Source of the DNA: Ignisphaera sp.
Lineage (GTDB): Archaea > Thermoproteota > Thermoprotei_A > Sulfolobales > Ignisphaeraceae
Length of the DNA: 18,788 nucleotides
Assembly: GCA_038821645.1 (NCBI GenBank)
Contig: JAWBDT010000022.1
Coordinates: forward strand, 1-18,788
Reading direction: 5' to 3'
The notes below the pieces were generated by a model, which was not told the DNA's origin, made no database searches, and was given only the letters and a program-made list of their open reading frames with translations. The position numbers and the translations under genes were made by a program. Numbering within the stretch: the stretch's first letter is position 1; the number at the start of each line of letters is the position of its first letter. This document shows, one piece after another, positions 1,650 to 18,788 of this stretch.

Positions 1650-1655
1650 AGATAT

Positions 1656-2309: not shown

Positions 2310-2899
2310 GTCTTTTCACCAGCAATAATGAATACAGGATTGCCTCCCCTAAGAAATAACCCATAGCCTAGAGGCTCACCTCTAGCCACTTGAACCATAA
2401 CCACCTCTAGCTTCATGCCAAGCTTCTTCATAATCGATAAAGCTGTATAAATATTCTCTAGCAGAGTTAGATTCAAAACAATCCTTCTACCATACCTCAA
2501 TCTATCAAACGCTACAGCTATTATCTCATCCAATCTACCAGAGCTACCCCCAATAAATACAGCATCTAGCTCTCTAGGAAGTAGAGATAAAGCATTTGGA
2601 GCCTCACCATGTATAAACCTTATAACTCTATCCACACCAAATCTTGTAGCATTTCTTTTCGCAATCTCTATAGCCTTCTCATTTCTATCGATAGCATATA
2701 CAACACCTTTAGAGCCAACAATATTAGCTAACTCGATAGCAATACTACCTGTTCCACAACCAATATCTACAACCACATCACCTTCTCTAATCCTCATCTT
2801 CGATATAGAGATAACCCTGACCTCCTCTTTAGTCATAACTATACCCTCAAGCTTATCAAACATTTCATCAGGTATACCATAGGTTCTATAGCTCCACAT
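2306..2899 (-). CDS. cbiT: Cobalt-precorrin-6B C15-methyltransferase (decarboxylating)
   Basis: GIPDEMF, MTKEEVR, class I SAM motif DIGCGTGSI, VFIGGS, GGNPVFI. Start is ATG 2899 (TGATG overlap) or TTG 2902. Confidence 0.93.
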   Translation of the reverse strand: MWSYRTYGIPDEMFDKLEGIVMTKEEVRVISISKMRIREGDVVVDIGCGTGSIAIELANIVGSKGVVYAIDRNEKAIEIAKRNATRFGVDRVIRFIHGEAPNALSLLPRELDAVFIGGSSGRLDEIIAVAFDRLRYGRRIVLNLTLLENIYTALSIMKKLGMKLEVVMVQVARGEPLGYGLFLRGGNPVFIIAGEKT

Positions 2900-3954
2900 C
2901 AAGTCTCAGCCCTAGCCAAGATACCTCCATCATAACTGAATACCAGTATCTCGATAATAGAGTTACTACACAATCTACGTAAATGGTTTAGAGCCTTTCT
3001 AGCCACATAGCTAAAGACAAGTGAAGCACTACTCCCTATAGTATCTAGAGCTTCTCTCACAGAAGAAGCTGCAGAAACCCTCTTAACAACATCTATATCT
3101 AGACCTACTGCAACACATGCATGAGTTAAAGCCTCTATTCTTGCATCACCTACTCTACTACTTGTATTCATTATACCAACACTTAGCTTCAGAACCTTAG
3201 AAGGCTGAATAGCTACAACTATACGAGAAAAACCTGCTTTCGAAGCTTCACTAACAGCAAATCCCACACTATCACCAACCTTAACTATAATCTCTGGACT
3301 GTATATCTGTGATGCATAATCGAAGGTTCTATTCCCTGTTGCTAAAACTATAACTGTGCTTCTAGATCTAACAATACTTATCTCTAGAGATATTCTATGT
3401 ACATCATCTTCAGCACTCACTGGCCACTCGATACCCGTGGTACCTAGAATGGATATACCATCAACTATACCTAGAGACTCATTCAAAGTCTTCTTCGCAA
3501 TCTCTTCACCATTTGGAACCTCTATAACTACATCTAAACCTATACCTTTTGCTACTTCTCTAATAGCTTCAATAATCATGCTTCTAGCTGTTGGCGATAT
3601 AGCGCTTTCACCAACAGGTATCTGGAGACCTGATCGAGCCACAATCCCCACCCCTCTACCACCAACAACATTAACAATATCATCTTTTCTCTGCTTAACA
3701 CATACAACAATAGAGATACCATCAAGAACATCAACATTATCGCCAGAAAACTTTCTAACAGAAGCACAAACACTATCACCATATACAAAGATCTGCTCTA
3801 CAGGTATCTCTAGTCTAAGCCCCACAGGTGTTGGAATTGTTACAGAACTGGGCTTCACTCTATGGAGAAGAAATACTGTAGCTGCTTTAGCTGCTGCAGC
3901 AGCTGCTGCTCCAGTTGTTATACCGAATCTTTTAAAGAACTGAACTATACTCAA
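2899..3954 (-). CDS. cbiD: Cobalt-precorrin-5B C1-methyltransferase
   Basis: GITTGAAAAAAAKAA, KFSGDNVDV, GGRGVG, KTLNESLGIVDGISILGTTG: CbiD family motifs. Confidence 0.95.
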   Translation of the reverse strand: MSIVQFFKRFGITTGAAAAAAAKAATVFLLHRVKPSSVTIPTPVGLRLEIPVEQIFVYGDSVCASVRKFSGDNVDVLDGISIVVCVKQRKDDIVNVVGGRGVGIVARSGLQIPVGESAISPTARSMIIEAIREVAKGIGLDVVIEVPNGEEIAKKTLNESLGIVDGISILGTTGIEWPVSAEDDVHRISLEISIVRSRSTVIVLATGNRTFDYASQIYSPEIIVKVGDSVGFAVSEASKAGFSRIVVAIQPSKVLKLSVGIMNTSSRVGDARIEALTHACVAVGLDIDVVKRVSAASSVREALDTIGSSASLVFSYVARKALNHLRRLCSNSIIEILVFSYDGGILARAET

Positions 3955-4694
3955 AGCCTATACCCTCTCTGAGTCACCATATAGTTTCTATAGATGATTG
4001 TCTTCGAAGAACCAACTATAATCGTTGTCCCCATATCTATATAGTCGCGATATTCAATCCAATCCTTTAGCCTAGTCACAAATACCTTCTCACCATCTCT
4101 ATAAACATTTCTAGCAATACCGACAGGAGTATCGCTAGATCTAAACCTTGCTACAGTATTCATAGCCTGTTCCACAAGATCAAGTTTAACCGGATTATAG
4201 AACACTATAACGAAATCTCCTTTTGCAGCATGCTCTACCTTGCTCAAGATAACTTCTCTAGGGATAAGGATATCGCTTAAATTAATTACAGCAAAATCAG
4301 ATGCTAGTGGTGCTCCAAGTTTTGCAGCAGCAGCTAAAGCAGCTGTAACACCAGGGATTATAGTTACATCAACATCTATACCGTTTTTAGCTATATATTC
4401 AAGCAGAATACCAGCCATACCATAGACTTGTGGATCTCCACCCGATACTAATGCAACTATCTCGCCATTTAGAGCATACTCTACTGCTTTTTTCACTCTC
4501 TCGACTTCTTCCCTCATACCATACTCAACAACCCTCTTATTCACTAGCACATCCCTAATGAAATCTATGTACCTTTTATACCCAAGCACTACACTACTTT
4601 CTTCAATAGCCTTGAGAACAGCAATAGTTCTAAGCTCTAGTGCTCCAGGACCTATCCCAACAACATATATCTTGCCTCTACATCTGTTTAACAT
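3951..4694 (-). CDS. cbiH: Cobalt-precorrin-3 (factor III) C17-methyltransferase
   Basis: GIGPG, GYKRY, GMREEVER, SGGDPQVYGMAG, GAPLASDFAVINLSD, FYNP, IDMGTTIIVG, C-terminal TQRGY. Confidence 0.93.
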   Translation of the reverse strand: MLNRCRGKIYVVGIGPGALELRTIAVLKAIEESSVVLGYKRYIDFIRDVLVNKRVVEYGMREEVERVKKAVEYALNGEIVALVSGGDPQVYGMAGILLEYIAKNGIDVDVTIIPGVTAALAAAAKLGAPLASDFAVINLSDILIPREVILSKVEHAAKGDFVIVFYNPVKLDLVEQAMNTVARFRSSDTPVGIARNVYRDGEKVFVTRLKDWIEYRDYIDMGTTIIVGSSKTIIYRNYMVTQRGYRL

Positions 4695-5718
4695 ACTCTA
4701 CAACACCATTGAAAATAGCTACAGCAAGCGAACTTCCACCATAGCTACCTCGAACAGTTATACATGGGATACCAGATCTTATTAATCTCTCTTTAACTAC
4801 TACAGCATTAACAAACCCCGGTGGTGTAGCTATAGCGAAGGGAATCTCGATTAAAGACTTGTTAACCATTTCTAAGACTTGTGAAAGTGCTAGTGGTGAA
4901 TTACCTATGATAGGTATAAATATTCTGTATCTCGAAGCTGCAACAACCATTGATGCAGCAGTTCTAGCCATATTCATTTCTTTTGCTAGCTTAACTGTAT
5001 CTTCATGATCTATAAACGTATACTTCTCTCTCCACCTAATACCTGAATAAACCATCTTAACATCTGTAACCACAGGTATCTTCTGATTAATCAAAACCTC
5101 TCTAGCTACATCTAGAAACCTTGGATGTATATAGGTATGGTACGCTAGATCAAGATTACCGCTAGCAAACACAACTCTAGCCATAACCATTTTCTCGAAA
5201 TCGCTAGTCTCTATAATAGTGTTAAGCAGTAGATTGATTCTCTCTAGAGACTCTGTCTCTATTCTAGAGACATTCTTCTCGACAGAGAGAACCTTCTGCT
5301 TCAACATACTGATAGACCTATTTATACTGTTAGCTATCATAAGCTTAAACAGTGTTGTACTAGAGATAGGTGAGGTAATGTATAGATTGAAGATATATCC
5401 TTTCCACATAACCTTCATCCACTGATCAAACACAAGATTATCCATAAACTTACCCACTATATCGCGAACAACATGCTTACCCTTGGCTATGAATAGAAGA
5501 ACCATAACGATATTCGTAACACCTCTCTCTAGAACTTCTTCCAAAACCTCTTCCCAGTGAGGAACAGACACATTTCCCACTTTTTCGTTATACGCTAAAT
5601 GTATCTCTAGATCTTGTTCAACAATAAACATTTTCATAGATTCAATAACGTTCTTAAGATCTCTGTAGACCTCGATTGAGCTTGATCCATGTGCAATAAC
5701 AATTATTGAGACCTTCAT
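4678..5718 (-). CDS. cbiC: Fusion of short CbiX cobaltochelatase (N-terminal) and CbiC cobalt-precorrin-8 methylmutase (C-terminal)
   Basis: N-domain has AHGS and LFIAKGKHVVRDI (CbiX metal-binding His motifs). C-domain has IETESL, VTDVKMV, IGNSPLAL, PPGFV, GGSSLAVAIFN. Start is placed at ATG 5718 (TGATG overlap with cbiE, GAGGTG upstream) rather than the ORF-track 5736. Confidence 0.9.
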   Translation of the reverse strand: MKVSIIVIAHGSSSIEVYRDLKNVIESMKMFIVEQDLEIHLAYNEKVGNVSVPHWEEVLEEVLERGVTNIVMVLLFIAKGKHVVRDIVGKFMDNLVFDQWMKVMWKGYIFNLYITSPISSTTLFKLMIANSINRSISMLKQKVLSVEKNVSRIETESLERINLLLNTIIETSDFEKMVMARVVFASGNLDLAYHTYIHPRFLDVAREVLINQKIPVVTDVKMVYSGIRWREKYTFIDHEDTVKLAKEMNMARTAASMVVAASRYRIFIPIIGNSPLALSQVLEMVNKSLIEIPFAIATPPGFVNAVVVKERLIRSGIPCITVRGSYGGSSLAVAIFNGVVEYVKQM

Positions 5719-6395
5719 CAATACACCTCTGTACAAGGCTCTATAACGAGAATTGTATAAGCATCTAGATCTCTATCCATTGAGAGCATTTCCGAAAGCT
5801 TGAATTTAACCACATTTTCTTCTGAAAAAGATAGTCTCTGAAACATATATACAGTAGAGTCACAGACCATCTTCTCGCTTATCTTCTTAACCATAGCAAT
5901 CACATCAACAAAATTTGTTCTAGGGTAGATGATTAGATATCTGTTTAGCCTAAGGATATCCTCTATAGATGCTAGATCCTCTTCGATATTTTTAGATGAA
6001 TGGAGAGATAGAACAACAGTATTACCTAGATCTATATGTAGTTTTGCAAGAACTAGATTAACTGAAGAGACTCCCGAGATAATAATATGGTCTACTCTAT
6101 ACATTCTACAGAAACTGATTACAGTATTCATCAAGTTTCTCTCAGATACAAATGGATCACCCCTCAGAAGAAGACAAACATCTTCTGAATATGCTCTTTT
6201 CACAATACTCTCCACAAACTCATGTACACGTCTGCTATCTATCTCGATAACCTCTTTTCTCCCGATCAACCATCTAAATTGCTCTAGAATCTTCCTCCAT
6301 GCAGCAACAGTAACACACTTAGCTATAGCCTTTAGAGCCTTGATGGTTATATACTCAGGATCTCCTGGTCCTACCCCAACTACATATAGAACCAT
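5718..6395 (-). CDS. cbiE: Cobalt-precorrin-7 C5-methyltransferase
   Basis: GVGPGDPEYIT, RGDPFVS, SGVSSV, VLSLH, QRLSFSEE; the remaining class III methyltransferase role in the operon. Confidence 0.82.
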   Translation of the reverse strand: MVLYVVGVGPGDPEYITIKALKAIAKCVTVAAWRKILEQFRWLIGRKEVIEIDSRRVHEFVESIVKRAYSEDVCLLLRGDPFVSERNLMNTVISFCRMYRVDHIIISGVSSVNLVLAKLHIDLGNTVVLSLHSSKNIEEDLASIEDILRLNRYLIIYPRTNFVDVIAMVKKISEKMVCDSTVYMFQRLSFSEENVVKFKLSEMLSMDRDLDAYTILVIEPCTEVY

Positions 6396-7402
6396 TAATG
6401 ATCACGACACGAAGCCATAGCTATAGTAACATTCCTTCTAAACACACGTTTCCTAAAGATGAGATGAGCCTTACCGCTACATCCATAGATTGCACAAGCT
6501 TCTGCAACACCTCTAAACCCATACTTAACTATATTTGGAGAAGGTGGTGTTAGACATATATCATCTATACTGTTTATCTCATCAAGTTTCACAAGCTTAA
6601 AAGGTACACCAAGAATATTGGCAACTTCTTTAACTATAGGTTTTATAGAAACAATACATTTGATTGATGATAAATCTATATTTACCTCATCTAGAGCTTC
6701 CCTAATAGCTATAGCAACTTCATTTGCATCTGTATCGTTATGAGCACCTACACCTATAGATATTGTGTAAGGTTTACACCAAACTATTCTAGCATTCTCT
6801 AGATCAATATCTATATCACTATTTTTTGAACGAACAAAGAAAATATACCTACATTTACCGCCATCAACTATATACTTCCCTCTAACAATCGAGGGCATAC
6901 TATCGATACCATATACACATATCTCTTCACCTCTCAGTAGAGCTGAATCAAGTATCTGAACATCATCAATATTCTCTATATGGCAATGAAGAATCCTTGC
7001 CAACTGTTCAATACTTGTAATCCCTCGAGAATCTGAAGCTGTTGTTATAACAGGTTCTAGCTTAAGTATTCTCGACAACTCTAACGCAATCTCGTTTGCA
7101 CCCCAATGAGCACCAATAACCGGTATCACGAATCTACCGCTAGGATCTACAACAATAACTGGAGGATCAATAGATTTATGTACAAGTTTTCCACATAGAG
7201 TTCTAACAGCAACACCAATAGGAGAAATAAATATGAGTGCATCATAACACTTTAATAGGTTATCAATATCGAAGCTCTTTATGGATCCAATAACTATTGG
7301 AACCCCATAGCTAGATATCTGAGTCCCAATATTTTTCGCAATAGTCTTTTCACTATCTGATGTATATAAAATAGCCATTCCTCTCCAAAGAGTCTCCAGC
7401 AA
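6395..7402 (-). CDS. cbiG: Cobalt-precorrin-5A hydrolase
   Basis: GVAVR, KSIDPPVIVVD, GAHWGANE, PVITTASD, IGVGA, GVAEACA, VTIAMA. Confidence 0.93.
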   Translation of the reverse strand: MLETLWRGMAILYTSDSEKTIAKNIGTQISSYGVPIVIGSIKSFDIDNLLKCYDALIFISPIGVAVRTLCGKLVHKSIDPPVIVVDPSGRFVIPVIGAHWGANEIALELSRILKLEPVITTASDSRGITSIEQLARILHCHIENIDDVQILDSALLRGEEICVYGIDSMPSIVRGKYIVDGGKCRYIFFVRSKNSDIDIDLENARIVWCKPYTISIGVGAHNDTDANEVAIAIREALDEVNIDLSSIKCIVSIKPIVKEVANILGVPFKLVKLDEINSIDDICLTPPSPNIVKYGFRGVAEACAIYGCSGKAHLIFRKRVFRRNVTIAMASCRDH

Positions 7403-7591
7403 CTCTTATCAACCACACTATATGTGTACAGGCTAGCCATATATAACCCTATTCTATTTAACTCACTCTTAACTCTAAATCTCTTTATAGTTGATGGTGA
7501 ACAGAACTATGAATATTTCTGGTATATAGTTTGTAAACAATAGCTTTATATTCTGATTTAAATTCATCTGAAATATGGCTAGGGTAACCAC
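7403..7591. promoter_or_regulatory. Divergent promoter region for the cbiG and hemA operons
   Basis: TATA-like TTTATATT at 7545-7552 (+) after an A-rich BRE-like stretch; TTATATAT at 7446-7439 (-). Exact promoter positions are inferred. Confidence 0.6.
7422..7442 (-). promoter_or_regulatory. Candidate 21-bp operator, copy 1 (cbiG): ATATGGCTAGCCTGTACACAT
   Basis: 14 of 21 positions are identical across the three copies, each at an operon start. Confidence 0.6.
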
Positions 7592-7593
7592 AT
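7573..7593 (+). promoter_or_regulatory. Candidate 21-bp operator, copy 2 (hemA): ATATGGCTAGGGTAACCACAT
   Basis: Begins 20 nt downstream of the TATA-like box and overlaps the hemA ATG. Confidence 0.65.
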
Positions 7594-8860
7594 GATTAAT
7601 ACAATAGCGCTCTCACAATCTTTAGCAGCATATACATTAACATTCAGAAAACTATCGCCAGATATTCTTGCCTCTCTAAGAACAAAACATAGAGACCTCT
7701 ATAGAGCTATGTGTAGCAATGGAATTAGCTGTGTAGTTCTATCAACATGCCTAAGATTCGAAGTCTATATACATACAGAAGGAGAGGATAGATGGAACTT
7801 TATAGAAAAACATCTAGAGAATATGTTAGGAGACTACAAGATTTACATAGATAAGCATGTGGGTATTGATGCCATAAGATATCTATTCGAGGTTTCATCA
7901 GGTCTTCATTCACAAATTGTTGGTGAATGGGAAATACTTGAGCAAGTTGAAGAAGCACTAAAACGCTCTATAGAGTTTTCCTGTAGCTCATGGCTTCTCG
8001 AAAAATTGTTTCGAAAAGCTGTTGATGTTGGGCGAAAAGTTAGGATCCAGTTCATGGGTCTAGAGACACATGATAGAGGATATCCACAGATTGGTATCAA
8101 GATTCTGTCTAAAGCTCTAGGTGATTTAAACGATAAGAGGCTTATGTTCATAGGCTCTGGCCATGCAATTCGTAGAGCTATTAGATACCTCATGAAATAC
8201 TATAGACCTTCCATAGTTGTGGTCATTAGTGAAGACATCAATAAGGCTACCAGTATCTGTAGCATGTATGGAGAAAGCTGTATACCGCTTCCATTTAGCG
8301 ATCTAATTGAATGGCTAACGAAAATCGATGGAATATTTATAGCTATCTCAAATCTTGGTAATGAGTACTTAAGCAAGATAAGACAAGCTGTTGAATCTCT
8401 GAAAATACCTGTAGTTGATATTTCATTACCTCCTATAGTAAAAGAGATTCATGAAAAGATATACACTTTCTATGATATCCAAAGATATGCTGAAGAAGCT
8501 AACGAGACTACTGTCTCGTGTATAGACAAGATAAAAAAGACAATAGATAGAGAGGTAGAAGCTTTTCTACTGAGTATAGCTAGAGACATGGTGACAAATC
8601 GCTTAGCATCAATAATGAAGGCTGCTGAAGTACTAGCTATATATTCTGCTGAAAAACTGGTTAAAGAGCTTAGAATATCTGAAGAGAGTAGAGAGATAGT
8701 TGTAGCTGCTTTTCGTAATTATGCACACAAAATCTTGATCCCATTGATAGATACAATGTTGCAGAAAAGCTTACAGAACGAGAAGTATGGTGAATACATA
8801 AACTCTATACTCACTCATTTCGAAAACAAGCTGAATTCTCTCATTGATTCGGTGAAGTAG
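7592..8860 (+). CDS. hemA: Glutamyl-tRNA reductase (divergent)
   Basis: STCLRFEVY (catalytic Cys), SGLHSQIVGEWEILEQV, AVDVGRKVR, Rossmann-like FIGSG, VDISLP; first gene of the hem operon. Confidence 0.9.
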   Translation: MINTIALSQSLAAYTLTFRKLSPDILASLRTKHRDLYRAMCSNGISCVVLSTCLRFEVYIHTEGEDRWNFIEKHLENMLGDYKIYIDKHVGIDAIRYLFEVSSGLHSQIVGEWEILEQVEEALKRSIEFSCSSWLLEKLFRKAVDVGRKVRIQFMGLETHDRGYPQIGIKILSKALGDLNDKRLMFIGSGHAIRRAIRYLMKYYRPSIVVVISEDINKATSICSMYGESCIPLPFSDLIEWLTKIDGIFIAISNLGNEYLSKIRQAVESLKIPVVDISLPPIVKEIHEKIYTFYDIQRYAEEANETTVSCIDKIKKTIDREVEAFLLSIARDMVTNRLASIMKAAEVLAIYSAEKLVKELRISEESREIVVAAFRNYAHKILIPLIDTMLQKSLQNEKYGEYINSILTHFENKLNSLIDSVK

Positions 8861-9880
8861 ATGAATCCTATATACACATCACTTAGATTCCCCTACACAC
8901 GTCCACGTAGATTAAGACGAAGAGAAGCTATAAGAGATCTAGTGGCACAGGTTTCGATAGATCCAAGAAAACTTGTGCTACCTATATTCATAAACGATAG
9001 TGTATCTAGTCCAACACCGATCAATGCTTTGAAAGGACATAAATACTATCCCCCTCAGTCAAAAGAACTAATAGAGCTGATACAAAGAGCTTTAGAGCTA
9101 GATGTTCACAGCTTCCTCTTATTCGGTATACCTTCCTTTAAAGATGCTGTAGGAAGTGCTGCTTTCAGTAGAGAAGGACCTATACAGAAAGCTCTGAGAT
9201 TCATCAGATCTGAACTAAATGATGAACCCATACTCTTTGCAGATCTATGTATATGCAGCTATACTGACCACGGTCACTGTGGACTAATTATGAATAAGAA
9301 TGGGTCTATTGTCATAGATAACGATAGCACTCTTGATGTCTATAAGAAGATTGCTGTAAGTCTTGCTGAAAATGGTGCAGACTTTGTTGCTCCCTCTGGT
9401 ATGATGGATGGACAGGTTAGAGCTATAAGAGAAGCTCTAGATAGCCATGGATTTACAGATATAGGTATCATGAGTTACTCAGTTAAGTATGCAAGTAGCT
9501 TCTACACACCATTTAGATTAGCCATGGATTCTAGTCCAAGGTTTGGAGATAGAAGGTCTTACCAAATGGATTTCAGGAATGCTGAAGAAGCTGTAAAAGA
9601 AGCTATAATTGATGTTGAAGAGGGAGCAGATATAATTATGGTGAAGCCTGCGCTTATGTATCTAGATGTGATCTACATGCTGAAGAAGGTTCTACAGTAT
9701 GTGCCTTTAGCAGCCTATAGCGTAAGTGGAGAGTATATGATGATAGAGCTCATGATAGAGAATGGTTATCTAGATAGAGATAGAGGTTTACTAGAGATAG
9801 CTACAGCTGTGTTTAGAGCTGGAGCCGATATAATGATAACATATCATGCACTCGATATAGCTATGATTCTTAGTAGGTGA
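8861..9880 (+). CDS. hemB: Porphobilinogen synthase (ALA dehydratase), Zn-type
   Basis: RPRRLR, DLCICSYTDHGHCG zinc site, APSGMMDG, SYSVKY, DRRSYQMD, MVKP, SGEY. Confidence 0.98.
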   Translation: MNPIYTSLRFPYTRPRRLRRREAIRDLVAQVSIDPRKLVLPIFINDSVSSPTPINALKGHKYYPPQSKELIELIQRALELDVHSFLLFGIPSFKDAVGSAAFSREGPIQKALRFIRSELNDEPILFADLCICSYTDHGHCGLIMNKNGSIVIDNDSTLDVYKKIAVSLAENGADFVAPSGMMDGQVRAIREALDSHGFTDIGIMSYSVKYASSFYTPFRLAMDSSPRFGDRRSYQMDFRNAEEAVKEAIIDVEEGADIIMVKPALMYLDVIYMLKKVLQYVPLAAYSVSGEYMMIELMIENGYLDRDRGLLEIATAVFRAGADIMITYHALDIAMILSR

Positions 9881-9885
9881 ACTAG

Positions 9886-11184
9886 ATGAATCGAAGCAAT
9901 AGAAGTTACGAACTGTATAGAGAAGCATGTGTATTATTCCCAGGTTGTGTAAATAGCCCTATAAGAGCTGCTGTAGAGCCTTATCCATTTTTTGTAGAGA
10001 AAGCTAATGGAGCATATATCTATACAGTCGATGGAGAAACACTTATAGACTATGTACTAGGCTACGGTACTCTGATTCTAGGCCACAGACATCCATACAT
10101 AGAGAAGGTTCTGAAGAACCAGATAGAGAAAGGATGGCTCTACACTACCCCAATAGAAGCAGAAGTTTTGCTAGGGAAGAAGATCCAGAGCTATGTAATG
10201 AGGAATGGAATGATTAGATTCGTTAATAGTGGAGCTGAAGCTACACTACTTGCCATAAGGCTAGCTAGAGCATATACCCGACGTAAATACATAATCAAGT
10301 TTAATGGATGTTACCATGGTGCTCACGACTTTGTGCTTGTATCTGCAGGTAGTGCTGCTCAACACTATGGTATACCGACTAGCGAAGGTGTTCTAGAAGA
10401 TGTTGCGAAATATACACTTGTAGCAGAATTCAATGATCTATCTACTGTAGAATATATATTCAGGAATATGGGTGAACAAATAGCTGCCATAATAACAGAA
10501 CCTGTTCTAGGTAATATGGGTGTGATACCTCCTGATAAAGATTTCCTAAAAGGTCTTAGAGAGCTATGCGATAGATACAGCTCTCTACTGATATTCGATG
10601 AGGTTATAACAGGCTTTAGACTTGGATTAGGTGGTGCTCAACAATACTATAGCGTTTCAGCAGATATTGTTACACTAGGCAAAATAGTTGGTGGTGGTTT
10701 CCCTATAGGGGTTGTGGTAGCTAGAAAAGATATAGCATCACTTATAGCGCCTCAAGGAAAAGTATTCAATGCAGGAACATTCAATGCTCATCCAATCTCT
10801 ATGATCGCTGGTTATGCAACTATAGAGGTTCTCGAGAAAGAACCTGTACATTATTACGCTAGATTAGCTGCTGAAAAGATTGTTAAAGCATTTCAAGAAG
10901 CTTCTAAAGAAAATAACATAGATATCCAGATAAATCATGTAGAGAGTATGTTCCAAGTATTCTTCATAGATAAGCCTGTGAAAAATGCTAGCGATGCTAG
11001 AAATAGTAATAGTGTATTGTATAAGAAGATGCAGATAGAGCTCCAGAAGAGAGGAGTGTTTATTGCTCCAAGTCAATTCGAAGCAATATTCACAAGCTAT
11101 GCCCATGTAGATGAAGTTGTATCTAAAACCATAGACTCTATCCATACAGTATTTAAAACAATTAAGAATATGAGTAGCGGTTAA
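9886..11184 (+). CDS. hemL: Glutamate-1-semialdehyde 2,1-aminomutase
   Basis: PGCVNSPIRA, RFVNSGAEA, GCYHG, FDEVITGFR, PLP lysine in LGKIVGGGFP, AGTF, PSQFE. Confidence 0.98.
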   Translation: MNRSNRSYELYREACVLFPGCVNSPIRAAVEPYPFFVEKANGAYIYTVDGETLIDYVLGYGTLILGHRHPYIEKVLKNQIEKGWLYTTPIEAEVLLGKKIQSYVMRNGMIRFVNSGAEATLLAIRLARAYTRRKYIIKFNGCYHGAHDFVLVSAGSAAQHYGIPTSEGVLEDVAKYTLVAEFNDLSTVEYIFRNMGEQIAAIITEPVLGNMGVIPPDKDFLKGLRELCDRYSSLLIFDEVITGFRLGLGGAQQYYSVSADIVTLGKIVGGGFPIGVVVARKDIASLIAPQGKVFNAGTFNAHPISMIAGYATIEVLEKEPVHYYARLAAEKIVKAFQEASKENNIDIQINHVESMFQVFFIDKPVKNASDARNSNSVLYKKMQIELQKRGVFIAPSQFEAIFTSYAHVDEVVSKTIDSIHTVFKTIKNMSSG

Positions 11185-11188
11185 AAGA

Positions 11189-12082
11189 ATGAGAAAGATT
11201 AAGGTAGCTACAAGAGGGAGTAGACTCAGTTTGATACAAACTGATATAGCTATCAGCTACATGAAGCAGATGATTCCTGAAGCAGAATTTGAGAAAGTAG
11301 TTATTAAGACTGTAGGCGATATTGTTACTGATAAACCGATACACGAGATAGGGGTTGTTGGAGCATTTGAGAAAGATGTTGATAAAGCTGTATTGAATGG
11401 ATTAGCTGATGTAGCTATACATAGTCTAAAGGATATACCTAGCGAAATTCCATATGGTATGGATATAGTTTTTGTAACTCCGAGAGATAGCCCAAACGAT
11501 GCCTTAATCCATAGATCAGGTGAAGTAGTTTCACCCTATGATCTCCCTTCTGGTACAGTTATCGGGACATCTAGTCTGAGGAGGAGGCTACAGATTCTCT
11601 CTATAAATAATGGATTGATTGTAAAAAACCTCAGAGGCAATATCGATACAAGAGTAGCTAAGCTAATGAACAACGAATACGACGCTATTATAGTAGCTGA
11701 ATGTGCTGTCAAGCGACTTAACCTAGACATAAAATACTATAGACTACCAATCATACCCTTTACACCAGCACCAGGACAAGGCATAATAGCTGTTGTAGCT
11801 CCATCTGATAGCTGGATAGCTAGAGTTCTTAAAGATAAGTCAGATAGATATGCATGGGCTATGATGAAATGCGAAAGAACATTTCTAGAAACACTAAGAG
11901 CTGGATGTAGAACAGCTCTAGGATTTGTATGTATAAGCCATCAATCTAACACACTTACAGCAGTAGCAAATGTATTTGTAGATGAGGGTAAAGGTATATG
12001 GATTCAGAGTAGAGCAGATATAGATAAAGCAGAAAGACTTGGAGAAAGAATGGCTGAAGAAGTTAAGAGTCTTCTGAGTTGA
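11189..12082 (+). CDS. hemC: Hydroxymethylbilane synthase (porphobilinogen deaminase)
   Basis: ATRGSRL, KTVGD, HSLKD, GTSSLRR, LRGNIDTR, PAPGQG, cofactor Cys in AGCR. Confidence 0.97.
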   Translation: MRKIKVATRGSRLSLIQTDIAISYMKQMIPEAEFEKVVIKTVGDIVTDKPIHEIGVVGAFEKDVDKAVLNGLADVAIHSLKDIPSEIPYGMDIVFVTPRDSPNDALIHRSGEVVSPYDLPSGTVIGTSSLRRRLQILSINNGLIVKNLRGNIDTRVAKLMNNEYDAIIVAECAVKRLNLDIKYYRLPIIPFTPAPGQGIIAVVAPSDSWIARVLKDKSDRYAWAMMKCERTFLETLRAGCRTALGFVCISHQSNTLTAVANVFVDEGKGIWIQSRADIDKAERLGERMAEEVKSLLS

Positions 12083-12825
12083 GGAACTTGGGCAAAGTAT
12101 ATATAGTTGGTGCTGGTCCTGGAGATCCTGAGTTAATAACACTAAAGGCGCTTAAATTGATCAAGGAGGCAGATGTTATACTATACGATAGACTAGTTTC
12201 TCCACAACTGTTATCATATGCAAAAGAGAGTGCTATAAAGATCTACGTAGGCAAAGAGCCTGGTGAAAGCCATAAGCAACAGGAAATCAATAAGATGTTG
12301 GTAGAATTCGCTAAAAGAGGTTTAACTGTAGTTAGGCTAAAGAATGGAGATCCTATGGTATTTGGACGTGGAGCAGAAGAATGTCTATATGTTGCTGAAC
12401 ATGGTATATGTTGTGAAGTAGTTCCAGGAGTCTCAAGCTTTCTTGCAGCTTCAGCTGTTTCTGGTGTACCTCTAACTGCTAGAGGATATTCATCGAGTTT
12501 TGCTGTTGTTACATCACATGAAGATCCAGCCAAAGGCTTTAGATCTGTAGACTTATCTAGAATAGCTGGTGCTGTAGATGTTGTAGTTGTGCTTATGGGT
12601 GCCAGTAAAGCTTATGAGGTTCTAGAAGAGATAGGGAAGATCATGGGATATGATACCCATGGTGTTATAGCAATTAATGTCACTCTACCTGGGCAAACAA
12701 TAATCAGAGGCTCTCTCAGAGATTTGATAAAGATGGTTAGAGAGAAAGGTGTAGAGAGACCAGCTGTAATAATAGTCGGTAAATCTGCTAAACTTAGCGA
12801 AAAACTCTATAGTGTTTGTAGATGA
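12079..12825 (+). CDS. cobA: Uroporphyrinogen-III C-methyltransferase (SUMT)
   Basis: GAGPGDPELITLKA, YDRLV, VGKEPG, QQEIN, RLKNGDPMVFGRGAEE, PLTARG, VLMG. Start is TTG 12079 or TTG 12088. Confidence 0.95.
   Translation: MRNLGKVYIVGAGPGDPELITLKALKLIKEADVILYDRLVSPQLLSYAKESAIKIYVGKEPGESHKQQEINKMLVEFAKRGLTVVRLKNGDPMVFGRGAEECLYVAEHGICCEVVPGVSSFLAASAVSGVPLTARGYSSSFAVVTSHEDPAKGFRSVDLSRIAGAVDVVVVLMGASKAYEVLEEIGKIMGYDTHGVIAINVTLPGQTIIRGSLRDLIKMVREKGVERPAVIIVGKSAKLSEKLYSVCR
12089..12146 (+). repeat. 58-bp perfect inverted repeat, right copy (5' end of cobA)
   Basis: TGGGCAAAGTATATATAGTTGGTGCTGGTCCTGGAGATCCTGAGTTAATAACACTAAA matches cbiF 1648-1591. Confidence 0.95.
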
Positions 12826-13568
12826 AGTGCCGTATTGCTGTATTTTCTCCCGATACAAAGATACCTAACAAGCTCTTAGATATCGGTAGCATTCTCTGGT
12901 TACCGCTTATAGAGCTTGAGCCTATCAATGGCTCATCTATAGAAGCAATCATGTATCTTAAGAGATGTCCTATAGCAGTTGTTGTTAGCCCAAGAACTAT
13001 AGAGATTCTGGTTAGAGATGCTGAGAATAATAAGTTGATGAATGTATTGATCGAGGCTATAAAGAGAAGCACAGTTGTTGTCATAGGTAGAGGAACTGCT
13101 GAAAGTATTCGAAACTATTTACAGATAGAGCCGCACATTGTTTCCCCAAAACCTTTTACTGAAGAGTTGATGAAGTATCTAGAGTCTATGGGTATTAAAT
13201 GTGTAACTCTGTTTAAAGCTGAAGGAGGTGTTATTGATGTTGATCGATACCCTAGTATGAGTATATATGTTGTTAAGGTCTATAGATATAGAGTTGTTGA
13301 AGAGAATCTAGAGCTTGTGAAGAAGCTTATCGAGAGAAGAGGTATAGATGTATTAGCTGTAACTAGCTACACTATAGCAAAGATCTTGTGTAGAAAAGTA
13401 GAGAGCCTCAATAATCTACCTCTAGCTGTATTAGGTAGAACTACAGCAAAAGCTGTTACAGAATTCTGTAGAGATGTAGATAGTGTTCTAGTTGGCGATG
13501 GAACTATAGAGATGTTTAGAGAAATCATCATGAATATATGTTCAGAAGCAAGAAGAGTATTTTGGTAA
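12822..13568 (+). CDS. hemD: Uroporphyrinogen-III synthase
   Basis: PLIELEP, VVSPRT, VIGRGTA, KVYRY, AVTS, LGRTTAKA follow the HemD pattern; lies after hemC-cobA. Confidence 0.85.
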   Translation: MKCRIAVFSPDTKIPNKLLDIGSILWLPLIELEPINGSSIEAIMYLKRCPIAVVVSPRTIEILVRDAENNKLMNVLIEAIKRSTVVVIGRGTAESIRNYLQIEPHIVSPKPFTEELMKYLESMGIKCVTLFKAEGGVIDVDRYPSMSIYVVKVYRYRVVEENLELVKKLIERRGIDVLAVTSYTIAKILCRKVESLNNLPLAVLGRTTAKAVTEFCRDVDSVLVGDGTIEMFREIIMNICSEARRVFW

Positions 13569-13578
13569 GGTTAGACAA

Positions 13579-14268
13579 ATGTATATACCTCTATTCATCG
13601 ATTTCTCTAACCTAAAGGTACTAGTCATAGGATGTGGTAGCGTTGGTTTAAGGAGAGCTTCTCTCTTCAGTAATGCTGGTGCTAAGGTTACTACGGTATG
13701 TAGAGAATCTGAGAAAAGGATTGAAGGAGTTAATGTAGTGTCAATCGATATCAAGGAAAACGATATAGAGACCATTAAACAGTTGGTGAAAGACCATCAT
13801 CTAGTGGTGATAGCTATAGATAGTGAATCTCTTGCATCAGCTATAGCTAGAATAGCTATATCTCTAGGCAAACTGGTTAATAATGCTGTAGACTCTAGGC
13901 TAGGCAACACAATAGTTCCGTTAAGATTATCGCTAAATGGTATAGATATAGGTATAACGAGTTACGGTATTTCTGTTGAAGCTCTTCGAAGAATGGCTAG
14001 AAAGATAGAGATACTTCTAGAAAGCGATATAGAGATCAAGACCCTCATACATATCTGTAGAGTATTGAAGAAATGTGTAAAGATTTTTGTTCAAAACCAT
14101 AAAGAGCGTATGAATCTCTATAGATCTATATTTACAGATGATGAGTTTAATAGATATGTATCGAAAGGAGATACTGTTTCAGCATTTTCAAGAGCTATCG
14201 ATATAGCTAGAAGCTTTGGATTTGAAATTAAGGAGTGCATAGAAAGAGGCTTAGATCAAGACAACTAG
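13579..14268 (+). CDS. sirC: Precorrin-2 dehydrogenase (SirC / CysG N-terminal / Met8-like)
   Basis: YIPLFIDF, Rossmann motif VIGCGSVGLRR, LVNNAVD, IGITSYG. Stop overlaps the convergent cbiO stop (CTAG 14265-14268). Confidence 0.88.
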   Translation: MYIPLFIDFSNLKVLVIGCGSVGLRRASLFSNAGAKVTTVCRESEKRIEGVNVVSIDIKENDIETIKQLVKDHHLVVIAIDSESLASAIARIAISLGKLVNNAVDSRLGNTIVPLRLSLNGIDIGITSYGISVEALRRMARKIEILLESDIEIKTLIHICRVLKKCVKIFVQNHKERMNLYRSIFTDDEFNRYVSKGDTVSAFSRAIDIARSFGFEIKECIERGLDQDN

Positions 14269-14948
14269 ATATATGTCTTTACAGACCTTATCTTCACTAT
14301 AGATCCATTCTCTAGCCTAATGAAGCTATCCGCAATATCTCTATAAAGCTTCAGATTATGTGTTGCAATAACAGTTAAACCACCTTTCATCTTGTGCTCT
14401 ACAACTAATTTAAGAAGCTTATCCACAAACCTCTTAGCCAAACCTGTGTGAGGCTCATCTAGAAGAAGTATAGGTGGTGAATACATCAGTATCGATATTA
14501 GTGCCACTAACTTCTTATAGCCATAGCTAAGAGTGTAGGGCTTTTGACTCAAGATAGATGTGTTTAGAGAGAAATAGTTTAGCCAATAGCTTAATCTATC
14601 AGCTATAATCTTCTCGCTACTCTCTATCTGTTTAATTGAATACACAAGTTCATCATAAACAGAGGGATTGAAAAGCATTGCATCAGGATTCTGAAACAAT
14701 ATACCTATATATCTCCTCATATCTCTATTCCTAAATATCGAAACATTATTTATAGTGACATCACCTTTGACAGGCTTAAGTAATCCAGCTAAAACCATTA
14801 ATAGAGTTGATTTTCCAGCACCATTAGGTCCAGTAATTATATAGATGTTACCGCTATACAGATATAGATCGATACCTTTCAACGTATACAAATCTTGTGA
14901 TCCAGGGTATTTGTACCATAGATTCTCTACACGAATAGCTATATCCAT
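14265..14948 (-). CDS. cbiO: ECF Co/Ni transporter ATPase
   Basis: Walker A GPNGAGKS, FQNPD, LSYGYKK signature, LLLDEP, ATH. Confidence 0.9.
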   Translation of the reverse strand: MDIAIRVENLWYKYPGSQDLYTLKGIDLYLYSGNIYIITGPNGAGKSTLLMVLAGLLKPVKGDVTINNVSIFRNRDMRRYIGILFQNPDAMLFNPSVYDELVYSIKQIESSEKIIADRLSYWLNYFSLNTSILSQKPYTLSYGYKKLVALISILMYSPPILLLDEPHTGLAKRFVDKLLKLVVEHKMKGGLTVIATHNLKLYRDIADSFIRLENGSIVKIRSVKTYI

Positions 14949-15700
14949 TTGCTGTACACCGCTATAGCAATTGATATAGAAAGAAGTAGAAGAATATAGT
15001 CTAGTACACTCAATCTACTTCTAGTAGCGCTTCTTCCTCTATCAATATTATCCACAATAGTTCTAGACTCTATAGCTAGAACCATTTGTTGCGATAACTC
15101 GATACCGTGGAATACAGTATCACCTAAACAGGCTACAAGGATCTTCAGAAGATTTAGTCTATTCAGCTTCAGGGTTCTAGATGTTCTAGCAAGTATGAGA
15201 GAAGTTATGTGGATAATGACTTTAGGGAGCAATAGAAATGTTATTGTAAAGAGGTAGCCAAAGAATCTAGATATCTTGAATAACGTCTTCGATACCCCAT
15301 CTATACCTATAGCCATTATCAGCATTATGGATACTGTAGAGATAGTTATAGCGTTAAGTAGAATATGTAGTAGCGATAGAGCTATAGCAACAATATCGTT
15401 AAACAATATATAGTTAACAACAATTGCAGGCAAAGCAATTAGTATTAGAAACACAAGCAGATCTACATACGTATGTACAGTATCTCTAGGGCTTCTACCT
15501 ATCAAGAGCATTACTGTAAACGATATGGATAAGATAGCCAGCTTGCTAAACACATCTCCATAGAGTGATGAAGATACTAGAAGTATAAACACAACTATAG
15601 CTATAACCACATTTAACCTCTTTCTAGGTCTGCTATATAGAGATTCAAGAACCTCATAAAGCTCATTAGCTATACTGTATAAGATTTCTGGAACACTCAT
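14939..15700 (-). CDS. cbiQ: ECF Co/Ni transporter transmembrane T component
   Basis: Several hydrophobic segments, two xSRT coupling-type motifs (ARTSRT, AIESRT), and position between the S component and the ATPase. Confidence 0.72.
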   Translation of the reverse strand: MSVPEILYSIANELYEVLESLYSRPRKRLNVVIAIVVFILLVSSSLYGDVFSKLAILSISFTVMLLIGRSPRDTVHTYVDLLVFLILIALPAIVVNYILFNDIVAIALSLLHILLNAITISTVSIMLIMAIGIDGVSKTLFKISRFFGYLFTITFLLLPKVIIHITSLILARTSRTLKLNRLNLLKILVACLGDTVFHGIELSQQMVLAIESRTIVDNIDRGRSATRSRLSVLDYILLLLSISIAIAVYSKWI

Positions 15701-15736
15701 AGCTATATCCTTAGAGAACTCTTCATAAAATCTGTT

Positions 15737-16012
15737 CTACGACTTTCTACGCATTATGTAGAGTATTATGTAGTAGATCGATATAATGATTAGAGACCCA
15801 AAGGCAGCTGAAACCATATAGCCTAAATAAGCATCTAGGCCTGGTACCATATATTCTCTAAATGGTGAATAGATTAAACCAGTAGCATTAACTATATCAG
15901 CTAGAGACTCCATATATTCTTCTGATTCAAGGATCTCTGGCAACACGATCCCAAAGATAGGGCTAACTAAGATCAATAACGACAACACTATGATGATCTT
16001 TCTCGAAATCAT
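15737..16012 (-). CDS. Small two-TM auxiliary subunit of the metal ECF transporter (NikN/PDGLE-like; CbiN role)
   Basis: TM-loop-TM layout; loop SPFREYMVPG resembles the P-x-x-D-Y-x-x-P-G motif of PDGLE/NikN domains; ATGA-coupled to cbiM. Confidence 0.75.
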   Translation of the reverse strand: MISRKIIIVLSLLILVSPIFGIVLPEILESEEYMESLADIVNATGLIYSPFREYMVPGLDAYLGYMVSAAFGSLIIISIYYIILYIMRRKS

Positions 16013-16656
16013 GCTCTACCACCTTCAAAGAGTATCAATGGATTTCTACTACGAATATATTCAGCAACACCCATAGTAATTAAGCCCTCTAGCGGCCCTA
16101 GTAATGCATGTGTTACAAACATTACCGTAGGAGTTATCCTAAGGTTGTAGAGATTTGATCCAAGTATTTCGCCCGACAATCCCAATATAAATCCTGCTGT
16201 CAAACCTGTGAGTATTGTTGATAAGTATCCAGTAATAAAAGTTGCGATATAGAATGGAGCTCTAGTCTTCTTCAAAAATGTGTAGACTAGATAGCTACAC
16301 CAAACACCTATAACTCCAGCTGAAATTATGTTTGCACCAAATGCTGTTATCCCACCATCATGGAATATGAATGTCTGGACAGCGAGTACTGTAGCCATAA
16401 CTATAAGCCCGCCAAGAGGTCCTGAGACAATACCTGCTAGTCCACCGCCAACGAAATGTAGAGTTGAGCCACCTGGTACAGGCCATTTAATTAATTGAGC
16501 AACAAATATTGAGCTAGCTAATCCAGCAATCTTAGCTATCTCGAATTCTGAAACCATGCTTCTGTATCTCATTATGGTGTAGCTTAGTATAAGTATAGCT
16601 ATTCCATATGTAGCGATTATTGTATATGGATCTAGCAGACCATCCGGGATATGCAT
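16009..16656 (-). CDS. cbiM: ECF Co/Ni transporter substrate-binding S component (CbiM/NikM family)
   Basis: N-terminal MHIPDG metal site, PGGSTLHFVGG, GPLGG, QTFIFHDGGITAFGAN, H...EGLIT; about 7 TM segments. Confidence 0.95.
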   Translation of the reverse strand: MHIPDGLLDPYTIIATYGIAILILSYTIMRYRSMVSEFEIAKIAGLASSIFVAQLIKWPVPGGSTLHFVGGGLAGIVSGPLGGLIVMATVLAVQTFIFHDGGITAFGANIISAGVIGVWCSYLVYTFLKKTRAPFYIATFITGYLSTILTGLTAGFILGLSGEILGSNLYNLRITPTVMFVTHALLGPLEGLITMGVAEYIRSRNPLILFEGGRA

Positions 16657-16677
16657 ATGTGGCCACCTAAGCCATAT
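16657..16677 (-). promoter_or_regulatory. Candidate 21-bp operator, copy 3 (cbiM): ATATGGC-TTAGGTG-GCCACAT
   Basis: Most symmetric copy (6 of 7 arm positions pair); abuts the ATG and contains the GGTG Shine-Dalgarno-like site. Confidence 0.65.
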
Positions 16678-17385: not shown

Positions 17386-18788
17386 TTAGACTGTTTTGAG
17401 TATGTTTTTTAGATGTTTATATATATTTTCAATTGTTTCAGTATCTTTATATCCTATGTAGAGTTCATTGTTTTGTTTACATATCTTTACGAAATCTCTT
17501 AGTAGACCTGCATGAGCTATCAAATTCCTCTCTGATATTCGTTGACTATGTTGTTTATCGGTATTTTCAACAGTTTTTAGTTCTGAAATTTCTCTATATT
17601 CTCTACATTCATTTTCTTTTATCTTGTCTTTACTTAAGTACTCTATGATACTGATTTCATTTTGGATCAAGTAGTTTAATGCAAAGTTGATTCTTGTGTA
17701 GATGTTTTCAGCCAAGTATTTGAGTAGAGATAGTTTAAACATGATACTGTTTTTTGCTTGAGATCTAGTATTCTGATCGATTTCGTATATAGGATTCTGA
17801 TGCTTATCTATAAGATTCTCCACATGTCTACAAACAGAATCAGTTATCAGTAGACTCCACAGAGTATTCAACTTAATTGATATACTTCTCTCGATACATT
17901 TATCTCTAATCTTCACGTTCTCTATCCACATATTCTTGATCTTCGATAAAAGTTCCTGAAAATCTTTAATACATTTACTATCACTACTACACATATCTTT
18001 ACGATTTTTCCAGTAATTCTGATAATCATAGCATGAATATAGTAATGCTAGAGGTGATGGTGAGTAAAGTGATGCTAGAACATTCTTGATGATGCCCTTG
18101 AGCTTGTTATCTATAACGCTACGAAGATTCTTTGTAGACTCATTATCTAAATTTTTATCGTTTCTTTTAGCTTCTTCAACACATCTACTATTCTTACTAA
18201 ATGAAACAAAGTCTTTTAGATCATCTGGTCGAGGAATCTCTATTTCTGTAACCTGTTTCTCGAAAACTCTATTGATGTTTAGCTCAGGCTTGTCAGAGCT
18301 ACTTTTTGGTGGATATGGATCTGAGTTGTATATCTCGAGAAATACATTAATGTTGTAGCGTAGCCTAAGAATTTGAGCAACAATTTCTGAAACCTTTGCT
18401 GTTAATACAGGTGAATAGTTTATACCGTGAGTTGAATCAAATACTACAGTAATATTATCACAATTTCTAACTAAAGACTTATCTAGATTAGCCAAATCTT
18501 CACCTAAGCTAATCAGGGATAGAGCTACATAATCTTCAACACTACCAACAAACCTAAACAAACCACCAGGAGACCCCAAAGCCGGTAGTACTACAACTTT
18601 CACTACATTACGTAGACTATTTATAATATCCTTATAACTAGACCCTTCTATAATATCCTTATAACTAGACCCTTCGAAAGATTTTTCGAGAAGTTCTTTA
18701 TAAACATGCTCATAAAATTTAGATACACCCTCAATCAGCCTATGATAGTCACTAAAACAACCATCACCAAAACGATAACCATTTTCAA
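17386..18788 (-). CDS. csx1: CRISPR-associated CARF-HEPN ribonuclease Csx1 (DxTHG family); 5' end lies outside the window
   Basis: VVLPALG, DSTHGINY (DxTHG), YNSDP and HEPN RxxxxH motif RNLIAHAG. The frame stays open upstream of the ORF-track GTG 18603 to the window edge (ENGYRFGDGCFSDYHRLIEG...). Confidence 0.92.
   Translation of the reverse strand, partial: ENGYRFGDGCFSDYHRLIEGVSKFYEHVYKELLEKSFEGSSYKDIIEGSSYKDIINSLRNVVKVVVLPALGSPGGLFRFVGSVEDYVALSLISLGEDLANLDKSLVRNCDNITVVFDSTHGINYSPVLTAKVSEIVAQILRLRYNINVFLEIYNSDPYPPKSSSDKPELNINRVFEKQVTEIEIPRPDDLKDFVSFSKNSRCVEEAKRNDKNLDNESTKNLRSVIDNKLKGIIKNVLASLYSPSPLALLYSCYDYQNYWKNRKDMCSSDSKCIKDFQELLSKIKNMWIENVKIRDKCIERSISIKLNTLWSLLITDSVCRHVENLIDKHQNPIYEIDQNTRSQAKNSIMFKLSLLKYLAENIYTRINFALNYLIQNEISIIEYLSKDKIKENECREYREISELKTVENTDKQHSQRISERNLIAHAGLLRDFVKICKQNNELYIGYKDTETIENIYKHLKNILKTV
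18622..18675. repeat. Perfect 27-bp tandem duplication inside csx1 (EGSSYKDII x2)
   Basis: TATAATATCCTTATAACTAGACCCTTC at 18622-18648 and 18649-18675. Confidence 0.95.

Follow-up and report, generated by a model that had tools for sequence, protein, structure and literature searches.

An 18,788-nucleotide stretch of DNA from the hot-spring archaeon Ignisphaera sp. (NCBI GenBank assembly GCA_038821645.1, contig JAWBDT010000022.1; hereafter the window) carries one 21-bp palindrome at the promoters of its cbi, hem and cbiM operons. Our analysis indicates, with a probability of roughly 80%, that this palindrome is the DNA operator of a B12 (corrinoid) regulon, and that it would be read by a dimeric winged-helix protein whose gene lies elsewhere; that a B12 operator read by a protein exists here at all appears, from the sequence comparisons below, very probable. 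Genes of B12 uptake, salvage and B12-dependent enzymes belong to the regulon as well. To our knowledge, the control of archaeal B12 genes has been an open question since a signal for a "hypothetical B12 regulator" was reportedly predicted in 2003. The present locus offers a clean and complete regulon, leading from glutamyl-tRNA reductase through corrin synthesis, cobalt uptake and B12 uptake and salvage to the enzymes that use B12. Its operator is sharply defined, and there is one concrete candidate for its regulator, a protein with PH0730-like_N and DUF4443 domains.

The proposed operator in the genome and in its relatives

The initial annotation of the window had described three 21-bp sites, at cbiG, hemA and cbiM, and all three were read from the sequence at the coordinates and on the strands it had given (Table 1). 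They align without gaps and are identical at 14 of 21 positions (1-8, 13 and 17-21), as had been claimed. The cbiG operator is the most degenerate of the copies and lies 43 nt 5' of the likely ATG at 7378; the hemA operator runs into the hemA start codon (7592), whose AT forms its final two bases, and the cbiM operator directly abuts the cbiM ATG (16656). When ATRTGG-N9-CCAYAT was searched for with at most one mismatch, four matches were found in the window compared to 0.22 expected, and none of 200 shuffles reached this number. The fourth match, at 7857-7877 inside hemA, is taken as chance on the basis of its sequence: it is devoid of the inner TA..TA half-site bases and scores below 12 bits in the symmetrised matrix. 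The earlier statement that the window has no other full copy therefore stands.

The genome to which the window belongs (labelled G000, the window being its contig C22) comprises 1.57 Mb in 31 contigs, with 35% G+C. Exact ATRTGG-N9-CCAYAT occurs in it five times, against approximately 0.4 occurrences expected from a composition estimate. A genome scan with a matrix built from the three window sites only, as the initial annotation had proposed, returned as its best new matches the promoter of a btuF gene (C24:6980, a perfect palindrome, ATATGGCTAGTCTAGCCATAT) and that of a corrinoid-protein gene (C12:37718-37738, minus strand, ATATGGTTAGTCTAGCCACAT), both with 22.6 bits; the next genomic match, of 19.9 bits, was located within an open reading frame (ORF). 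In a symmetrised five-site matrix the five sites scored 25-32 bits and the next genomic match 18.7, and three simulated genomes peaked at 17.6-20.3. Two weaker matrix matches, C9:11046 and C3:127606, were rejected as chance; both are inside ORFs (a long membrane-protein-like one and one of 436 aa, respectively). The C24 site is positioned 12 nt 5' of the ATG of a btuFCD-cobT-cbiZ operon, which encodes a Peripla_BP_2 binding protein, a FecCD permease, an ABC ATPase, a DBI_PRT-like CobT and CbiZ. The C12 site is found between fdhD and an operon encoding a corrinoid protein (B12-binding and B12-binding_2 domains), a URO-D-like (MtaA-type) methyltransferase and an MFS transporter. All five high-scoring copies in the 1.57 Mb are thereby accounted for by B12-related promoters. 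A search of the genome for cbiA and cbiP yielded weak GATase_3 matches only, and the canonical genes were not located.

In relatives, the extended consensus reads ATRTGG(C/T/A)TAG-N-CTA(G/A/T)CCAYAT. Each of the 16 other genomes of the genus that were searched contained the loose pattern, in 1-6 copies compared to 0-2 for a reversed control, and the genus copies are mostly ATRTGGCTAGSSYTAGCCAYAT-like. A refined pattern (ATRTGGNTANNNTANCCAYAT, at most one mismatch) occurred in 52 of the 121 sampled genomes of the order, the families of which are labelled here f1-f13, and one genus likewise g31. It was present in all 13 genomes of f1, in 11 of 13 of f13, 3 of 3 of f12, 6 of 8 of f7 and 8 of 13 of f6, and was rare or not found in f8 (0/13), f11 (0/8), f10 (1/13) and f2 (1/14). 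The seventh base is C in the Ignisphaera family and usually A in the others (ATATGGATAG...). The motif is thus kept at orthologous promoters, conservation on which the initial annotation had made its proposal depend.

To view the genes involved, 40 loci were fetched; they were picked by the fit of their inner bases before the genes were seen, and matches with poor inner bases were left out. In 38 of them the operator adjoins genes of B12 uptake, salvage, cobalt uptake or corrinoid enzymes. On the uptake side these neighbours were btuFCD-like genes (often with a radical-SAM gene), cbiM, cobN and the Ni/Co permease gene NicO (the latter in locus L065); the others were a cobT-cbiZ-cobY-cobD salvage operon, corrinoid-protein/URO-D genes and a pair of PP-loop ATPase genes. 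The orthologous cbiM site was present in one relative (L039). The two exceptions were a one-mismatch match inside an ORF (L033) and a locus cut by a contig end (L049). No operator was seen within 2.5 kb of hemB in three relatives of the hemB gene (from a Desulfurococcales archaeon, 59%; an Acidilobaceae archaeon, 55%; and Vulcanisaeta, 53%), in which the hemA promoters may lie outside the loci. Taken together, the regulon content and its conservation support the earlier proposal that one operator, with a dimeric regulator encoded outside the window, co-regulates tetrapyrrole supply, corrin synthesis and metal uptake.

Several further observations were made on these loci, and the regulon flags a number of unannotated genes as likely parts of corrinoid metabolism. 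The PP-loop ATPase pair (Asn_synthase-like and Diphthami_syn_2-like) recurs in the B12 regulon (G000 C19:26698-28064, minus strand; L041:7503-8848; L043, L044, L061, L104 and L109); it has the operator in front in four relatives and directly follows cobS-cbiB in G000, and may, judging from its context, carry out a step of corrinoid metabolism that is still unassigned. A second Peripla_BP_2 paralogue, shorter at approximately 260 aa and 26-31% identical to BtuF, has its own operator copy, which often abuts the TATA box (L031, L035, L037, L038, L043, L046, L048 and L056), and judging from its sequence it may be a separate corrinoid-binding protein. In genus g31 (L069, G062:C16:116200-124300) the operator ends in the ATG of a btuF-like gene, and the intergenic region is shared with a znuA-type ABC operon that faces it and whose last gene is DtxR-like. 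Families f8 and f2 have CbiB in 10 of 13 and 9 of 14 genomes, yet the motif in 0 of 13 and 1 of 14 and DUF4443 in none (0/13 and 0/14); their B12 genes must be under some other control.

The position of the operator within the promoters was then considered. Among 47 distinct sites, 42 are located no more than 60 nt upstream of a start codon, and half of these (21/42) end at -2 to 0 of it, with either the final AT of the site serving as the AT of the ATG or the ATG directly next to it. The start assignments are credible since the encoded N-termini fit, being signal-peptide-like in the binding proteins. An A+T maximum of 0.78-0.92 is found 21 to 14 nt upstream of the operator, in AAAGCTTTAAAA-type sequences, and in 14 of 36 promoters the best TATA-like octamer is separated from the operator by 13-16 nt. 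In archaea the usual distance between the end of the TATA box and +1 is approximately 23 nt, and therefore transcription is expected to start inside the operator. Within the window, the 20-nt gap between TATA box and operator that had been noted at hemA and cbiM is exact in both cases, but at hemA a rival box (TTTAAATT) is only 8 nt from the site. Similarly, the cbiG operator does overlap a TATA-like box (TTATATAT), as described before, but a second one (TTAAATAG) is found 11 nt upstream. Whichever of the candidate boxes is used, the operator would cover the predicted start region of hemA, cbiM and cbiG.

A second class of placement was observed at corrinoid-protein promoters, where the operator precedes the TFB-recognition element (BRE) and TATA box by 5-10 nt and the ATG follows the TATA box by approximately 25-35 nt. 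This layout was seen in five species (G000, G006, G011, G012 and G015; loci L002:7718-7738, which is G000:C12:37718-37738, L052, L054, L032 and L047), and two URO-D-like genes have the same one (L053 and L055). Judged from predicted TATA boxes, the operator would overlap the transcription start at most promoters, as the initial annotation had expected at hemA and cbiM, but it lies upstream of the TATA box at the corrinoid-protein genes. In archaea, a site that covers the transcription start, downstream of the TATA box, implies a block of RNA polymerase recruitment and hence repression, whereas one upstream of the BRE and TATA box has a placement linked with activation. By analogy, the upstream placement may signify activation, an alternative being occlusion of the BRE, and the two placements point to position-dependent dual regulation.

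These observations can be combined into a proposed mechanism. The five copies in the genome would mark the divergent cbi and hem operons, cbiMNQO, btuFCD-cobT-cbiZ (C24) and the corrinoid-protein/MtaA-like methyltransferase operon (C12). We infer that a dimeric winged-helix regulator binds each copy, the PH0730-like_N and DUF4443 protein being the most likely candidate. At the synthesis, uptake and salvage promoters the bound protein would block recruitment of RNA polymerase and thereby repress, presumably when corrinoid is plentiful; at the corrinoid-protein promoters the same protein could activate, or occlude TFB. The effector is more likely a corrinoid than Co2+, because the regulon includes B12 uptake, salvage and B12-dependent enzymes.

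The candidate regulator and the competing explanations

The G000 genome has a single DUF4443 gene (C2:47646-48299, 218 aa), located beside an HMG-CoA reductase gene. Its product combines the PH0730-like_N and DUF4443 domains; the Pfam matches are to PF14544 (58 bits) and PF22167 (32 bits), both above the cut-offs. A search for related loci with this single protein gave no match. An AlphaFold (AF2) model of the protein was obtained with a predicted local distance difference test (pLDDT) score of 93. Structure and profile comparison identified the N-terminal domain as a winged helix of the DtxR/MntR/CggR type, and the C-terminal domain is GAD-like, with similarity to the insertion domain found in bacterial aspartyl-tRNA synthetases. 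The only solved homologue is PH0730 of Pyrococcus horikoshii (PDB 2p8t; profile E 4.8e-29, Foldseek E 1.2e-09, 22% identity), a structural-genomics "hypothetical protein" whose entry title gives no function, ligand or DNA site.

Across the 121 genomes of the order sample, DUF4443 was detected in 62; 46 genomes have both motif and DUF4443, 6 the motif only, 16 DUF4443 only and 53 neither. To separate a link with the regulator from mere B12 capability, CbiB (present in 70 of the 121) was added to the comparison. Among CbiB-positive genomes the motif was found in 36 of 44 with DUF4443 compared to 3 of 26 without it, related genomes not being independent in this count. The three CbiB-positive and motif-positive genomes without DUF4443 all belong to genus g31, in which sister genomes score DUF4443 marginally. 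In a sample of the phylum, the DUF4443 gene was found inside a btu/cob operon in 3 of 20 diverse loci, in the orders rSAM-btuC-btuD-DUF4443-...-PP-loop pair (L104; rSAM denoting the radical-SAM gene), btuF-rSAM-btuC-btuD-DUF4443 (L113) and cobT-cobS-cobY-cbiZ-DUF4443 (L109). Palindromes of the TTGGAT...ATCCAA type were seen upstream of a DUF4443 gene (L102), of a pair formed by a helix-turn-helix (HTH) gene and a DUF4443 gene (L119, in which the HTH gene comes first and the palindrome precedes it) and of a gene for a DUF4430 surface protein (L112). Another protein, a winged-helix HTH protein encoded next to cobT in L070, was dropped as a possible regulator; it is membrane-anchored, and the 3' end of its gene, not the promoter, faces the site.

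Judged from these sequence comparisons, the odds that the DUF4443 protein of G000 is the cognate regulator are slightly better than even. The broader proposition must be put more tentatively: the protein could be the long-sought archaeal B12 sensor. It would then be a corrinoid-responsive transcription factor of a new class, lacking a canonical B12-binding domain and widespread in Thermoproteota, that uses one 21-bp operator in two ways: to repress B12 synthesis, cobalt uptake, B12 uptake and salvage where the site lies over the transcription start, and to activate B12-dependent methyltransferase genes where it lies just upstream of the TATA box. We would sooner bet against this full version than on it. 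DUF4443 was found in all 13 genomes of family f13, which appears to hold cultivable Sulfolobus-type species, as well as in the control genome of Sulfolobus acidocaldarius. Since both the motif (11/13) and DUF4443 occur in that family, the question is testable in a genetically tractable archaeon.

A number of findings weigh against this interpretation as a whole or against its choice of regulator. DUF4443 was detected in 236 of the 301 genomes sampled across the phylum, and its co-occurrence with the motif is weak evidence because the protein is so common and related genomes are not independent. No motif was seen, at the stringency used, in 16 of the 62 DUF4443-positive genomes of the order, and the 3 motif-positive g31 genomes have no detected DUF4443. 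Within the order the DUF4443 gene is not adjacent to B12 genes, and in 30 order loci the operator was absent within approximately 1.5 kb of it, giving no sign of autoregulation. The DUF4443 alignment displays neither an invariant histidine nor a recognisable B12-binding domain, and corrinoid binding by the protein is pure inference. Among 24 listed runs, no RNA run holding the locus was found. As for the regulon, several of the "btuF-like" neighbours share only 24-31% identity with the protein of G000 and may instead be importers of iron chelates, and the cobS-cbiB promoter of G000 runs past the end of contig C19, so that the regulon is incompletely seen.

In an unlikely, though not negligible, alternative, a metal-sensing repressor (such as the DtxR-family protein of the genome, or another cobalt sensor) reads the operator and the regulon answers Co2+ or Fe2+ and not the finished corrinoid. 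The inner 19 bp of the operator may resemble the DtxR/IdeR box. The genome has one full DtxR homologue, the regulon holds metal importers (cbiMNQO in the window and NicO in L065), FecCD-type transporters are typical of iron regulons, and the g31 site described above is situated between the btuF-like operon and the znuA-type operon with its DtxR-like gene. That site, however, ends in the btuF-like ATG and is 82 nt away from znuA, and no operator was found upstream of the G000 DtxR gene. The DtxR C-terminal domain (PF02742) occurs in 106 of the 121 order genomes, including 11 of 13 in f8 and 13 of 13 in f10, and its distribution does not track the motif, as these families are motif-less or nearly so. 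Moreover, cobT-cbiZ-cobY-cobD salvage genes and corrinoid-dependent methyltransferase genes would make no sense under an iron or manganese sensor.

The initial annotation had kept as a fallback a hairpin in the 5' untranslated region of the mRNA that covers the ribosome-binding site. In this reading the palindrome would act as RNA, masking either that site or the start codon and so regulating translation or mRNA stability. Approximately half of the sites reach the start codon, a 9-bp stem could form from a perfect copy, and the three window copies are co-oriented relative to transcription; the comparison with relatives nevertheless makes this reading very improbable and does not support the fallback. 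Among orthologous btuF sites the A/G difference between half-sites has no fixed orientation (ATATGG...CCACAT, ATGTGG...CCATAT and ATATGG...CCATAT). Read in the sense direction, positions 3/19 are A/T in 13 sites, A/C in 12, G/T in 11, G/C in 2 and other in 4, an RNA mismatch thus being as common as a wobble pair and the half-sites varying independently; mismatches at positions 7/15 in 15 of 42 sites are uncompensated, as are the changes at 10/12, and the mean pairing is alike on both strands (7.93 compared to 7.88 of 9). No Rfam match at the gathering score was obtained in the window, L001 or L002, including for the cobalamin riboswitch RF00174. Given the predicted TATA spacing, transcripts of most promoters would begin within the palindrome, and the sites upstream of the TATA box at corrinoid-protein promoters would not be transcribed with the gene; for these two reasons the element is considered to work as DNA. 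Least credible of all is a chance or generic promoter feature, such as an initiator or start-codon context, with no dedicated regulator. The A+T-rich ends of the site, its overlap with start codons and the 35% G+C of the genome are in line with such an origin; against it stand the restriction of high-scoring copies to five, all at B12-related promoters and all above the scores of the simulated genomes, the far fewer matches of the reversed-pattern control in relatives, and the recurrence of the same gene set beside the site across families.

Operons and other features of the window

The cbi and hem operons of the window are divergent, and their genes were assigned by Pfam. The cbi operon reads cbiG, a tetrapyrrole methylase gene, a cbiX-cbiC fusion, a further methylase gene, cbiD, a cbiT-like methyltransferase gene and further methylase genes, with five tetrapyrrole methylases in all. 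Its fusion gene is a single ORF (4678-5736, minus strand), in which a short CbiX-type cobaltochelatase domain is joined to CbiC (precorrin-8X methylmutase). The hem operon begins with hemA, encoding glutamyl-tRNA reductase, and continues with hemB, hemL, hemC, cobA (of the uroporphyrinogen-III methylase type), hemD and a precorrin-2 dehydrogenase-like gene (NAD_binding_7). In the third operon CbiQ had no Pfam match, and was named from its position and from a BLAST match by a relative's protein in locus L039.

Table 1. Candidate operators, candidate TATA boxes and operons of the window
Feature	Sequence	Position	Strand	Score or spacing	Basis
Operator at cbiG/cbi promoter	ATATGGCTAGCCTGTACACAT	7422-7442	-	25.9 bits	symmetrised matrix
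Operator at hemA promoter	ATATGGCTAGGGTAACCACAT	7573-7593	+	29.7 bits	symmetrised matrix
Operator at cbiM promoter	ATATGGCTTAGGTGGCCACAT	16657-16677	-	25.0 bits	symmetrised matrix
Candidate TATA box, hemA	TTTATATT	7545-7552	+	20 nt before operator	
Second candidate TATA box, hemA	TTTAAATT	7557-7564	+	8 nt before operator	
Candidate TATA box, cbiM	TTTATTAA	16698-16705	-	20 nt before operator	
Candidate TATA box, cbi operon	TTAAATAG	7454-7461	-	11 nt before operator	
Alternative candidate TATA box, cbi operon	TTATATAT		-	overlaps 5' end of operator	
cbi operon		903-7378	-		Pfam
hem operon		7592-14268	+		Pfam
cbiM-cbiN-cbiQ-cbiO cobalt/nickel uptake operon (energy-coupling factor, ECF, type)		14265-16656	-		Pfam

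An inverted match of 97 nt with 91% identity was found between 1552-1648 and 12089-12185. It connects two tetrapyrrole methylase genes at their 5' ends, namely cobA of the hem operon and the gene that closes the cbi operon, and these are far more diverged elsewhere; the match suggests a recent gene conversion between these methylase paralogues. The flanks of the window carry features of a different kind. A CRISPR array at 17-845 contains 12 copies of a repeat of approximately 25 nt (GAAACTCCCAAAAGGGAGTAGAAAG) spaced by approximately 71 nt and extends to the window start, and the ORF listed at 292-624 is spurious, as it lies inside this array. At the opposite end of the window a Csx1 CARF-HEPN gene is located at 17386-18603, on the minus strand.

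Comparison with known systems

Among the papers available to it, a full-text literature search found none mentioning DUF4443, the CBL-box or a "hypothetical B12 regulator". The accessible part of PMC8123684 contains nothing on archaeal operators, and those of PMC2667541 and PMC5397151 have no bearing on archaeal B12 operators.

The closest precedent, and the nearest counterpart to the regulator that the initial annotation had mentioned as proposed for Sulfolobales, is an earlier prediction. Rodionov, Vitreschak, Mironov and Gelfand reportedly predicted, in the Journal of Biological Chemistry in 2003, a "CBL-box" as the signal of a hypothetical B12 regulator in some archaea. It is likewise reported to be a conserved DNA signal upstream of archaeal genes of cobalamin synthesis and transport, derived from comparative genomics and with its regulator unnamed, and its consensus may be the same as the 21-bp palindrome. 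Beyond that prediction, the present analysis names a candidate regulator, distinguishes two placements of the operator and brings in the hem operon, cbiMNQO and the corrinoid-protein genes; it adds the whole de novo pathway to the regulon and a system that spans the order, including Sulfolobus-type species.

With regard to promoter layout, MDR1 of Archaeoglobus and LrpA and Phr of Pyrococcus are repressors with promoter-proximal operators, a palindrome downstream of the TATA box over the transcription start being the placement predicted here for most promoters; the protein family and the regulon differ. SurR and TrmBL1 are position-dependent dual regulators, for which a placement upstream of the BRE and TATA box corresponds to that seen here at corrinoid-protein promoters. 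DtxR, IdeR and MntR, which recognize 19-bp boxes, have a winged helix that the one of the candidate resembles, and their boxes may resemble the operator core; in the candidate, a DUF4443 (GAD-like) C-terminal domain takes the place of the metal-binding dimerisation domain of the DtxR type.

Bacteria control their B12 genes by riboswitches. The regulons of the bacterial cobalamin riboswitch (RF00174) have the same gene content as the one described here (B12 synthesis, cobalt uptake, btuFCD-type uptake and salvage), and the presumed logic, end-product feedback, is shared. The device itself differs, the riboswitch being a structured leader of approximately 200 nt and the archaeal element a short DNA palindrome in the promoter, to which, most likely, a protein switch docks that takes the part played in bacteria by B12 riboswitches.

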